64,000 nt of DNA. It comes from Escherichia coli (GTDB lineage: Bacteria > Pseudomonadota > Gammaproteobacteria > Enterobacterales > Enterobacteriaceae). The stretch's first letter is position 1. The number at the start of each line of letters is the position of its first letter. This document shows, one piece after another, positions 7,713 through 11,292 of the stretch. The DNA lies in NCBI RefSeq assembly GCF_050320075.1, contig NZ_CP190019.1. One strand, given 5' to 3'. Below the pieces are notes generated by a model that saw only the letters and a program-made list of their open reading frames with translations, did not search any database and was not told the DNA's origin. Position numbers and translations under genes: made by a program.

Positions 7713-7766
7713 TGAACCGCCCCGGGAATCCTGGAGACTAAACTCCCTGAGAAAGAGGTAAACAGG

Positions 7767-8093
7767 ATGACTAAAAATACTCGTTTTTCCCCCGAAGTCC
7801 GTCAGAGGGCGATTCGTATGGTTCTGGAAAGTCAGGGCGAATATGACTCACAGTGGGCGGCAATTTGTTCCATTGCCCCAAAGATTGGCTGTACACCGGA
7901 GACTCTGCGTGTCTGGGTACGCCAGCATGAGCGGGATACCGGAGGCGGTGATGGCGGGCTCACCACCGCTGAACGTCAGCGTCTGAAAGAGCTGGAACGT
8001 GAAAATCGTGAACTGCGCCGCAGTAACGATATCCTTCGCCAGGCTTCCGCTTATTTTGCGAAGGCGGAGTTCGACCGCCTCTGGAAAAAATGA
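7767..8093 (+). CDS. IS629-like OrfA (108 aa)
   Basis: [50 protein letters not shown]… matches IS629/IS1203 OrfA as recalled. Confidence 0.85.
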
Positions 8094-8507
8094 TGCCACT
8101 GCTGGATAAGCTGCGTGAGCAGTACGGGGTCGGACCGCTATGCAGCGAACTGCATATTGCCCCGTCAACGTATTACCACTGTCAGCAACAGCGACATCAT
8201 CCGGATAAACGCAGTGCCCGTGCGCAGCGCGATGACTGGCTGAAGAAAGAGATACAGCGCGTATACGATGAAAATCACAAGGTATACGGTGTGCGTAAAG
8301 TCTGGCGTCAGTTGTTACGGGAAGGTATCAGAGTGGCCAGATGCACTGTGGCACGTCTCATGGCAGTTATGGGACTTGCCGGTGTTCTCCGTGGTAAAAA
8401 GGTCCGTACGACCATCAGCCGGAAAGCCGTTGTCGCAGGCGACCGCGTAAACCGTCAGTTCGTGGCAGAACGTCCTGACCAGTTGTGGGTGGCTGATTCT
8501 ACTTACG
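8090..8507 (+). CDS. IS629-like OrfB, 5' portion (exon 1, interrupted by intron)
   Basis: [20 protein letters not shown]…QLWVADSTY then reading frame enters intron sequence. Confidence 0.75.
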
Positions 8508-9163
8508 GTGTGCCCGGAGTTCAGGGCGGGCATGGATGCTTAAATGAACCGCGAGTCTGTCTGGAATATTGAACCGGTAACTCACGATGAGAAACCCAAC
8601 AATCCCACCGGGTGTGACGGTGGAGAACCTGAGCGGCAGTGACCTGCGGCATGCCCGCAGGGTGATGTAACCCGCTGACAACGGGGATTGAGGCGAGATC
8701 ACTAAGCCGAGATGATCCTCAAGGTTAAGTACTGAAAGGCTGAAGAACATAAACCCGTTAATCCGCCTCTGTGGGTTGAAAACGTCACCACGGCCTACGT
8801 GATCTGACAGGCCGTGCAGGAGGAACTGGCAGTGATACGTAAGCACTGCCGGTCGAAGGTGTTTTGACATGTATGCGAAACACCGGGGCAGCAGCGTCTA
8901 TCACGCTTGCGTTGCTGACTTCTGCCAACTTGCGGCAAGCAAGGATAAAGAGTGCGACGGGCAGCCTCCTCAGTATGCCTGAGTCCAGGCAGGTAAACCG
9001 GGGAAGGTCAGCGACGGATGTTAAGGGGGCATGGCTCCGATGACGCGCTGGCTGGCGGAGCTTCCGTAGTAGTCCGCGATGGGGAAAGCCCATTACATGG
9101 CGAAGGGAAGCAGTTTGAATGTGTTTGCGACGTGAATTAACTGGCCTAACGAGGTGAAGACCT

Positions 9164-10687
9164 TTGATAATCAGCGAAATGCAACGCAAGCTTGCCACAT
9201 GGGCAGCCACCGATCCGTCCCTACGGATTCAACGGCTGCTGCGTCTGATAACACAACCAGAATGGCTGGCTGAAGCGGCGCGGATCACGCTTTCATCAAA
9301 GGGGGCGCATACCCCCGGCGTTGATGGCGTGAACAAAACAATGCTACAGGCCAGACTGGCTGTTGAGCTGCAAATCCTCAGGGATGAATTACTCTCAGGC
9401 CACTACCAGCCCTTGCCCGCCAGACGGGTTTACATCCCTAAAAGCAACGGCAAACTGCGACCACTGGGTATCCCCGCGTTGCGGGATCGTATTGTTCAGC
9501 GGGCCATGCTGATGGCGATGGAGCCGATATGGGAGAGTGATTTTCATACGCTCTCATATGGCTTCCGGCCTGAGCGCAGTGTCCACCACGCGATCCGCAC
9601 GGTGAAATTACAGCTCACAGACTGCGGTGAAACCCGGGGACGCTGGGTGATTGAAGGCGACCTGTCCAGTTACTTCGACACCGTACATCATCGACTGCTG
9701 ATGAAGGCTGTACGCCGCAGGATCAGTGACGCACGTTTCATGACTCTGCTGTGGAAAACCATCAAGGCGGGACATATCGATGTCGGTCTCTTTCGGGCGG
9801 CCAGTGAAGGTGTGCCACAGGGCGGTGTTATATCGCCGCTATTATCGAACATCATGCTGAATGAGTTCGATCAATACCTGCATGAGCGCTACCTGAGCGG
9901 GAAAGCCAGAAAAGATCGGTGGTACTGGAATAACAGTATCCAACGGGGCCGAAGTACGGCGGTCAGAGAAAACTGGCAGTGGAAACCCGCGGTGGCGTAC
10001 TGCCGCTATGCCGATGATTTTGTCCTCATCGTCAAAGGCACCAAAGCACAGGCGGAAGCCATCAGGGAGGAGTGTCGGGGTGTGCTCGAAGGCAGTCTGA
10101 AACTCAGGCTGAACATGGATAAGACTAAAATCACCCATGTTAATGACGGCTTTATCTTTCTGGGGCACAGGATCATTCGCAAACGCAGTCGTTATGGCGA
10201 GATGCGAGTGGTCTCAACGATCCCGCAGGAGAAAGCCAGAAACTTCGCCGCATCGCTGACAGCACTGTTATCAGGCAACTACAGTGAAAGCAAAGTCGAT
10301 ATGGCTGAACAACTCAACCGAAAACTGAAAGGCTGGGCCATGTTCTATCAGTTCGTTGATTTTAAGGCCAAAGTCTTCAGTTATATCGACCGTGTCGTGT
10401 TCTGGAAGCTGGCTCACTGGCTGGCCCGCAAATACCGTACAGGTATCGCTTCCCTGATGAGGTGGTGGTGTAAATCACCGAAACCGGGTCAGAGTAAAAC
10501 GTGGGTTTTATTTGGTAAAACCAATCACGGCAAGCTCAGCGGCGAAATACTGTACCGGTTGGTGGGGCAAGGCAAGAAGCTGTTCCGCTGGCGGCTACCC
10601 GAAGGTAATCCCTATCTGAGGACGGAGACCAGAAACACGTATACATCGCGCTTTACAGAAGTGGCAATGGCGTTCGCCAGCATTTAA
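9164..10687 (+). CDS. Group II intron-encoded reverse transcriptase/maturase (507 aa)
   Basis: RT motifs including …AYCRYADDFVLIV… (YADD), maturase-like C-terminal region. Confidence 0.85.
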   Translation: MIISEMQRKLATWAATDPSLRIQRLLRLITQPEWLAEAARITLSSKGAHTPGVDGVNKTMLQARLAVELQILRDELLSGHYQPLPARRVYIPKSNGKLRPLGIPALRDRIVQRAMLMAMEPIWESDFHTLSYGFRPERSVHHAIRTVKLQLTDCGETRGRWVIEGDLSSYFDTVHHRLLMKAVRRRISDARFMTLLWKTIKAGHIDVGLFRAASEGVPQGGVISPLLSNIMLNEFDQYLHERYLSGKARKDRWYWNNSIQRGRSTAVRENWQWKPAVAYCRYADDFVLIVKGTKAQAEAIREECRGVLEGSLKLRLNMDKTKITHVNDGFIFLGHRIIRKRSRYGEMRVVSTIPQEKARNFAASLTALLSGNYSESKVDMAEQLNRKLKGWAMFYQFVDFKAKVFSYIDRVVFWKLAHWLARKYRTGIASLMRWWCKSPKPGQSKTWVLFGKTNHGKLSGEILYRLVGQGKKLFRWRLPEGNPYLRTETRNTYTSRFTEVAMAFASI

Positions 10688-10692
10688 ATGGA

Positions 10693-10726
10693 GAGCCGGA
10701 TGCGCTGAAAGGTGCACGTCCGGTTC
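10693..10726 (+). ncRNA. Group II intron domain V (catalytic hairpin)
   Basis: GAGCCGGATGCGCTGAAAGGTGCACGTCCGGTTC fits the domain V consensus; lies 51 nt upstream of the intron 3' end. Confidence 0.7.
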
Positions 10727-10777
10727 GGGGAGGAGAGGCAGGGAAATAGTCCGACTACGCCCTGCCTCTTACTCTAC

Positions 10778-11250
10778 TCAGCACATGGCAGGGGGTCGTC
10801 TATGTGGCGTTCATCATTGATGTGTTTGCCGGATACATCGTGGGGTGGCGGGTCTCATCGTCTATGGAAACGACATTTGTGCTGGATGCTCTGGAGCAGG
10901 CGTTATGGGCCCGTCGACCGTCCGGCACAGTCCATCACAGTGATAAAGGTTCTCAGTATGTATCGCTGGCCTACACACAGCGGCTTAAGGAAGCCGGATT
11001 ACTGGCATCAACAGGAAGTACAGGCGACTCGTATGACAACGCGATGGCGGAGAGCATCAATGGCCTTTACAAAGCGGAGGTAATACACCGTAAGAGCTGG
11101 AAAAACCGTGCAGAAGTGGAACTGGCCACACTCACGTGGGTGGACTGGTATAACAATCGACGATTGCTGGAAAGGCTGGGCCATACTCCTCCGGCAGAAG
11201 CAGAAAAAGCTTATTATGCTTCCATCGGAAACGATGATCTGGCAGCCTGA
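10778..11250 (+). CDS. IS629-like OrfB, 3' portion (exon 2)
   Basis: …[39 protein letters not shown]…[13 protein letters not shown] transposase C-terminal part. Confidence 0.75.
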
Positions 11251-11292
11251 GTTCACAGATAAAACACTCTCCAGGAAACCCGGGGCGGTTCA

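Follow-up and report, generated by a model that had tools for sequence, protein, structure and literature searches.

An Escherichia coli plasmid locus in which a full-length E.c.I4 group II intron interrupts the transposase gene of an IS629 isoform

Two mobile group II introns that reside in transposase genes of insertion sequences (ISs) offer the closest parallels for the locus described here. One of them, E.c.I4, has been reported from IS629, IS911, ISEc16, and ISEc31 (PMC3522654), and both E.c.I4 and S.f.I1 have been placed in open reading frame (ORF) class A, without an endonuclease domain (Toro and Martinez-Abarca 2013, PMC3552965). The copy termed E.c.I4-2b lies at 4848623-4850893 of NC_009801 (supplement Table S3 of Leclercq and Cordaux 2012, PMC3522654), and in the naming used by the Zimmerly database, introns that are more than 95% identical share one name (as quoted in PMC3552965). 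The other, RmInt1, is found in ISRm2011-2, where exon ligation in vivo amounts to 0.07% (PMC3035460) and unproductive splicing has been proposed to limit the dispersal of the host IS (PMC3035460, PMC4238363). Here we analyze a 64,000-nucleotide (nt) stretch of an E. coli plasmid (contig NZ_CP190019.1; hereafter the window), which contains a composite element, IS629::E.c.I4, at 7713..11292 on the + strand (3,580 bp, made up of a 1,310-bp IS and a 2,270-bp intron). We propose, with a probability of roughly 0.93, that this element is an IS629 isoform with a full-length and apparently functional copy of E.c.I4 in its orfB, which retrohomed after the IS had inserted.

The intron spans 8508..10777 (+ strand, 2,270 nt) and is oriented along the sense strand of orfB. 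Its first bases (8508..8512, +), read directly from the sequence, are the 5' splice-site consensus GUGUG, which is common to all near-intact relatives, with GUGCG in a relative from Bradyrhizobium; its 3' end reads CTAC, the terminal AC being 10776..10777. These boundaries are unambiguous because, on a related plasmid, the same position holds the IS without interruption, as TTACG|TCAGC. When the intron is deleted, exactly 1,310 bp are left between 7713 and 11292, and an uninterrupted OrfB of 296 amino acids (aa) runs across ...ADSTY|VSTWQG. The left (7713..7752, +) and right (11253..11292, -) inverted repeat regions, as delimited by repeat comparison, agree in all 14 of their end bases and in 23 of the first 25, and the terminal 14-mer, TGAACCGCCCCGGG, occurs in the window only at the two IS ends, 7713 and 11292. 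A first-pass annotation, made from the sequence alone, had described a GTGTG...AC insert of 2,270 bp at 8508..10777 and a 1,310-bp remainder with IS629-type ends and a continuous OrfB, and all of its coordinates and numbers hold; likewise, on every structural point examined, the insert is a full-length group II intron that interrupts orfB of an IS629 isoform and runs in the sense direction. The structural observation at 7713..11292 is thus confirmed as real and is no chance pattern.

The host IS displays the expected organization of its family. An intact orfA of 108 aa (7767..8093, +), matching the N-terminal part of the IS3 family transposase model NF033516, lies upstream of the intron. It is joined to orfB through an ALIL pseudoknot (8048..8164, +), the signal for the programmed -1 frameshift by which OrfA and OrfB become fused, which was detected with the Rfam model RF01497 at 120.2 bits against a gathering score of 50 and has a slippery run near 8084-8090. 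In the uninterrupted orthologous IS, the annotation by the NCBI Prokaryotic Genome Annotation Pipeline (PGAP) carries the label "programmed frameshift." The first exon of orfB (8090..8507, +) ends with the codons for W V A D S T Y and the first base of the next codon, and the second (10778..11250, +) encodes what remains of the DDE catalytic domain, up to the stop codon. Compared with depositor-annotated IS629 copies in phage BP-4795 and Stx2 phages (Stx2_499), the intron-less element is 97.7-98.1% identical, without gaps, over 1,310 bp.

Evidence from the RNA itself comes from both ends of the intron. At the 3' end, the Rfam model for domains V-VI (RF00029) matches from end to end at 10691..10777, with 64.9 bits against a gathering score of 40. 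Domain V is a 34-nt hairpin with an AGC triad, a 2-nt bulge, and a GAAA loop at 10693..10726 (+), identified by Rfam and folding, and the domain V-only Rfam models match exactly this span, for which the first-pass annotation had suggested a domain V-like hairpin. Domain VI (10729..10775, +; folding and Rfam) includes a bulged branch-point adenosine, A10771, located 7 nt from the 3' splice site. Folding of 10688..10777 gives two hairpins with a minimum free energy of -48.2 kcal/mol and a z score of -5.8 relative to shuffled sequences. Upstream of the intron ORF, where a lack of conserved group II structure beyond domain V had been set beforehand as the ground for abandoning this interpretation, such structure was found. 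We aligned the 656-nt segment preceding the ORF from the window and six relatives (one each from E. coli, Yersinia pestis, Klebsiella, and Bradyrhizobium and two from Salmonella), ranging from 99% to about 70% identity, and obtained a consensus fold of 183 pairs in 28 helices, with 94.6% of cells paired across the seven sequences. Compensatory double changes are seen in 35 pairs, as against 10.3 +/- 2.7 in column shuffles (none of 500 reached 35) and 3-11 in a slid control in which pairing partners were moved by 1-3 columns; with only seven sequences, and with the structure derived from the same alignment, this is supporting evidence and not proof. The fold includes a domain II-like helix set (8998..9058, +; helices 22-25, with four compensatory pairs in helix 23) and a domain III-like hairpin (9060..9111, +; helices 26-27, 100% paired, with five compensatory pairs). 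The sequence of the latter hairpin alone matches unrelated group II introns on plasmids of the Bacillus group (Cytobacillus), Clostridium, Sinorhizobium, and Enterococcus.

Domain IV houses the intron-encoded reverse transcriptase (RT)/maturase (9164..10687, +). As the first-pass annotation had it, this is a protein of 507 aa with a YADD motif, which we place at residue 282; the ORF begins at a TTG codon at 9164, with a GAGGTG Shine-Dalgarno sequence 7 nt upstream. PGAP instead selects an ATG at 9179, giving a protein of 502 aa that is annotated as ltrA (WP_001189111.1); the protein is identical to this entry, which is also present in Klebsiella copies. The NCBIfam model for group II intron reverse transcriptase/maturase, TIGR04416, recognizes it with 340.9 bits against a curated cutoff of 300, and Pfam places RVT_1 at residues 91-337 and GIIM (maturase/domain X) at 361-426, leaving a C-terminal tail of 81 aa. 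The Pfam search of this protein recovered no HNH, endonuclease, or DNA-binding domain beside RVT_1 and GIIM.

Target recognition provides a further link between the intron and its host. The last 6 nt of the 5' exon (8502..8507, +), CUUACG, form intron-binding site 1 (IBS1) and pair at six of six positions with exon-binding site 1 (EBS1), CGUAAG (8838..8843), which is presented in the loop AUACGUAAG of a hairpin with a 9-bp stem (8826..8852, +; helix 18, with three compensatory pairs). The base just before EBS1, A8837, can pair with U10778, the first base of the 3' exon, which would suit either delta-delta' (IIA-style) or EBS3-IBS3 (IIB-style) recognition; this exon base is U in every insertion for which the 3' junction was read, and A8837 is invariant across the relatives compared. 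In a relative from Salmonella diarizonae that is 89% identical (L005), EBS1 is GGUAUG(U) and the exon is (A)CAUACC, a perfect match; since loop and exon have both changed and still match, the EBS1 loop and the exon covary. Moreover, eight independent insertions in different IS3-family transposases, namely, those of IS629, an IS911-type element, five other enterobacterial IS3-family elements, and one Bradyrhizobium IS3-family element, are all at the same codon position, one base past the Tyr codon of the W-x-x-D-x-T-Y motif that contains the first catalytic Asp. For EBS2, every position of domain I was compared with the exon bases from -7 to -19 in six insertions. This pairing scan yielded a tentative candidate, UGAUGU (8663..8668, +), with one compensatory change in insertion L006. 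It pairs well with the IS3-family consensus ACAUCA/AUAUCA, matching at six of six positions in L006 and L007 and at five of six in L002, L005, and L008.

The history of the locus can be read from related plasmids, on which it is encountered in three states. In the first, lacking the IS, 149 plasmids join both flanks through a single CCT, the best cases being 100% identical over 300 nt. In the second, represented by NZ_CP033091.2 (a plasmid of E. coli ATCC 11775), IS629 alone is present at 7713..9022 between identical flanks; this IS differs from the exons in the window by one synonymous base, and TTACG|TCAGC is uninterrupted. In the third, which comprises the window and several plasmids with the intron at identical coordinates, both elements are present. 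Because the IS-free plasmids hold a single CCT, the two copies bordering the IS in the window (7710..7712 and 11293..11295), which the first-pass annotation had reported as a 3-bp direct repeat, are a genuine target-site duplication made by insertion of IS629. The existence of the three states indicates that the intron entered an IS629 copy already in place, and the simplest order suggested by these comparisons places insertion of the IS first and retrohoming of the intron into the resident IS second. As a separate observation, IS629 copies at the same site and without the intron on NZ_AP027653.1 (positions 1520..1538 of the locus) and NC_009837.1 contain a 19-bp tandem duplication, GGAGACTAAACTCCCTGAG, situated just inside the left inverted repeat.

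Taking these findings together with established group II intron biology, from which the individual steps are drawn, we propose the following mechanism. The excised intron RNA and its protein, the maturase having aided excision, would recognize the sense strand of orfB by pairing of EBS1 CGUAAG with IBS1 CUUACG, and A8837 may pair with the first base of the 3' exon during this recognition. The intron would then reverse-splice into double-stranded IS629 DNA just past the Tyr codon of the D-x-T-Y sequence that surrounds the first catalytic Asp, and the inserted intron would be copied into DNA. As the intron protein has no endonuclease, we infer that this synthesis is probably primed by the nascent strand at a replication fork. 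The intron is most likely a selfish retroelement, to which the IS would offer a dispensable, multicopy target that moves between hosts; the target sequence is kept conserved by its role in coding for the active site of the transposase.

Several observations weigh against this proposal or narrow it. Our literature search found no experimental splicing or retrohoming data for E.c.I4. The Rfam models for group II domains D1-D4 gave no match in the window even at an E value of up to 1, and the architecture of domains I-IV therefore depends on our own alignment of only seven related sequences. Of the EBS/IBS pairings, which the first-pass annotation had named for checking, EBS1-IBS1 was found in full, but the EBS2 candidate pairs with the IS629 sequence AUUCUA at only four of six positions; several other candidates in the scan score alike, and none pairs well with IS629. 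Finally, the same EBS1 allele also occupies IS911-type sites, in which IBS1 pairs at only four of six positions with mismatches at -1 and -5, and base pairing alone thus fails to explain the choice of target. It looks as if IS629 is the cognate target of this EBS1 allele and the other sites are tolerated ones.

The insertion also bears on the transposase. If the RNA is not spliced, the orfB frame meets a stop codon at 8570..8572, which lies 21 codons into the intron, downstream of the first catalytic Asp but ahead of the remaining DDE domain. Hence, full-length OrfAB (404 aa) can be made only from spliced RNA, as the first-pass annotation had deduced, and unspliced RNA can encode OrfA and a 268-aa truncated OrfAB without most of the catalytic domain. 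Judged from these reading frames, transposase production from this copy requires splicing, and strong attenuation of the copy is more probable than fine regulation. A scan of 7600..11400 for promoters and terminators found no more sites than in shuffled sequence. The first-pass annotation had gone further and presented the locus as a retroelement controlling a DNA transposon. Along these lines, the intron could be a regulatory switch, selected because the efficiency of its splicing would determine how much IS629 transposase is made and so restrain the IS from spreading. The requirement of exact splicing for full-length OrfAB accords with this idea, an experimental case for it has been made with RmInt1 in ISRm2011-2 (PMC3035460, PMC4238363), and intron proliferation has been tied to IS abundance (Leclercq and Cordaux, PMC3522654). 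We nevertheless regard it as doubtful: sequence cannot separate regulation from plain insertional inactivation, and the conserved codons of the catalytic site explain the choice of target more simply. Furthermore, most IS629 copies in E. coli are without the intron (31,469 matching places for the IS versus 5,496 for the intron), and the occupancy of homing sites is often well under saturation (PMC3522654). Exon ligation at the level reported for RmInt1, the best-studied parallel, is nearer to near-complete silencing than to tuning, and the description as control is not borne out; nor is the concept of an intron that limits its IS new, since it has already been published for RmInt1. A different possibility is that the 268-aa truncated OrfAB may act in trans as a dominant negative against other IS629 copies in the cell. 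It would keep the DNA-binding and multimerization regions without catalysis and could for that reason inhibit in trans, in which case the intron would dampen the whole IS629 population and not just the occupied copy, but we consider this improbable.

The opposite view, in which this copy neither splices nor moves and leaves IS629 permanently inactivated as a passive passenger of the plasmid, would account for the many plasmids that have the insertion at identical coordinates, 8508..10777, as would follow if a single old event had been passed on vertically or horizontally, and inactivated E.c.I4 copies have indeed been reported on large mobile elements (PMC3522654). It is difficult to reconcile with an ORF that is intact and encodes a protein found unchanged in Klebsiella, with the intactness of all catalytic RNA hallmarks, and with the full pairing of EBS1 and IBS1. 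Copies that are 100% identical occur on different replicons of the same strains, and the single synonymous base between the host IS and its uninterrupted orthologue implies that the insertion is recent. We therefore hold a dead relic to be unlikely. It is scarcely credible that the insert is another kind of RT element, such as a retron or a defence RT (DRT), or that the locus is a chimera of two partial IS copies around unrelated DNA. The protein does give weak, subthreshold RT-domain matches to retron and DRT models, as expected for any RT; however, these amount to 18-54 bits against cutoffs of 200-600, in contrast to the score above cutoff for TIGR04416, and domains V-VI match Rfam, on which grounds a retron or DRT element was rejected. 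A chimera is excluded by the exact 1,310-bp remainder and the orthologous empty site. The identification of the insert as a group II intron, and not a different type of element, hence stands on Rfam, TIGR04416, and the empty site, and we return to the proposal of a retrohomed, apparently functional E.c.I4 as the preferred interpretation.

Over its full 2,270 nt, the window intron is 99.1% identical to E.c.I4-2b (the reference being taken by the coordinates given in PMC3522654), which is above the >95% naming threshold, and on sequence identity it is assigned to E.c.I4. At least 80% of the intron is present in 1,873 of 5,426 complete E. coli genomes, with up to 20 copies in one genome, and the junction between IS629 exon and intron is found in 1,440 of the 5,426, roughly a quarter. 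About 3,500 copies of the intron are chromosomal. The intron also matches 2,186 plasmids, including those of Klebsiella, Salmonella, Enterobacter, Citrobacter, Shigella, and Yersinia. One strain has 100%-identical copies on its chromosome and two plasmids, and the presence of identical copies on several replicons of one strain points to recent movement. Novelty is accordingly not supported, as this is E.c.I4 at a catalogued homing site and nearly identical to a catalogued copy. PGAP annotates the arrangement automatically as ltrA flanked by split "IS3 family transposase" pseudogenes; the practical value of the present analysis for annotation is that the two "pseudogene" halves, 7767..8506 and 10771..11250, are exons of one gene and not products of decay. 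In addition, the locus offers a clean natural series (no IS, IS alone, and IS plus intron) that could be used to address the question of silencing versus tuning.

Relatives of the intron were observed in two further contexts. On pO157 of the Sakai strain (NC_002128.1), a 76-nt 5' stump of an E.c.I4-like intron, 94.7% identical, is located at 65790..65865 and adjoins IS629 remnants; this stump is widespread on O157 plasmids. The same plasmid was tried and rejected as an IS629 reference, since only a 306-nt fragment of the IS and the intron stump are found there. The second is a plasmid of Bradyrhizobium japonicum USDA 123 (CP126019.1, locus 3393..7557), in which an intron relative with 67-75% identity lies within an IS3-family transposase, again at the D-I-T-Y site. 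Immediately behind domain V of this relative, what appears to be a second group II intron begins, with GTGTG at about 5618, a match to the Rfam model group-II-D1D4-4 at 5645..5780, a frameshifted RT at 6027..7431, and a domain V from 7462. This arrangement appears to represent an intron inside an intron inside an IS.

The neighborhood of the composite element in the window is a stack of IS debris. Remnants of two other IS3-family transposase genes lie on either side of IS629 (7405..7628 and 11398..11666, both on the - strand); the annotation lists each as a partial, frameshifted "integrase core domain" pseudogene. At 11668, the window diverges from the ATCC 11775 plasmid, and an IS1A copy (coding sequence 11723..12420) sits there inside the right-hand IS3-type remnant. 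On the upstream side, at about 3657..6152, the annotation of the collinear plasmid pT28R-2 shows a short-chain dehydrogenase/reductase (SDR)-family oxidoreductase and an omptin-family outer-membrane protease. This part resembles the hlyF-ompT region that ColV-type IncF virulence plasmids carry, and the window seems to comprise the initial 64 kb of a plasmid of that kind. Further along, Rfam detects the Hfq-binding small RNA STnc490 at 19361..19482 (- strand; 90.8 bits against a gathering score of 56) and an AAC_AAD_leader/attI match at 58855..58933 (+ strand; 71.2 bits), the latter indicating that a class 1 integron and its resistance cassettes lie farther down the plasmid.

In comparison with described systems, the host element shares with the IS629/IS1203/IS3411 group of the IS3 family its length of 1,310 bp, its terminal repeats, the -1 frameshift between orfA and orfB with the ALIL pseudoknot, and the 3-bp duplication. 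It differs from the IS629 copies of Stx phages by a sequence divergence of about 2%, and the O157 copies labelled IS1203 by PGAP are about 95% identical to it over the 80 nt compared. Like the window intron, RmInt1 of Sinorhizobium meliloti is a mobile intron without an endonuclease that lies in sense orientation and has an IS transposase gene as its home; unlike it, RmInt1 belongs to class D/IIB3 rather than class A, and ISRm2011-2 is not a member of the IS3 family. For RmInt1, measurements of splicing and retrohoming exist, whereas our search found none for E.c.I4. The closest relationship is with E.c.I4 itself (= S.f.I1 of Shigella flexneri), which likewise combines an endonuclease-less RT/maturase with IS3-family transposase targets that include IS629. 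The E.c.I4 reference copy of E24377A sits in an IS911-type host and the window copy in an IS629 isoform on an IncF-type plasmid; the latter is a catalogued host context, and the window copy differs from E.c.I4 in nothing material. The IS629::E.c.I4 arrangement is thus already known, real but ordinary.

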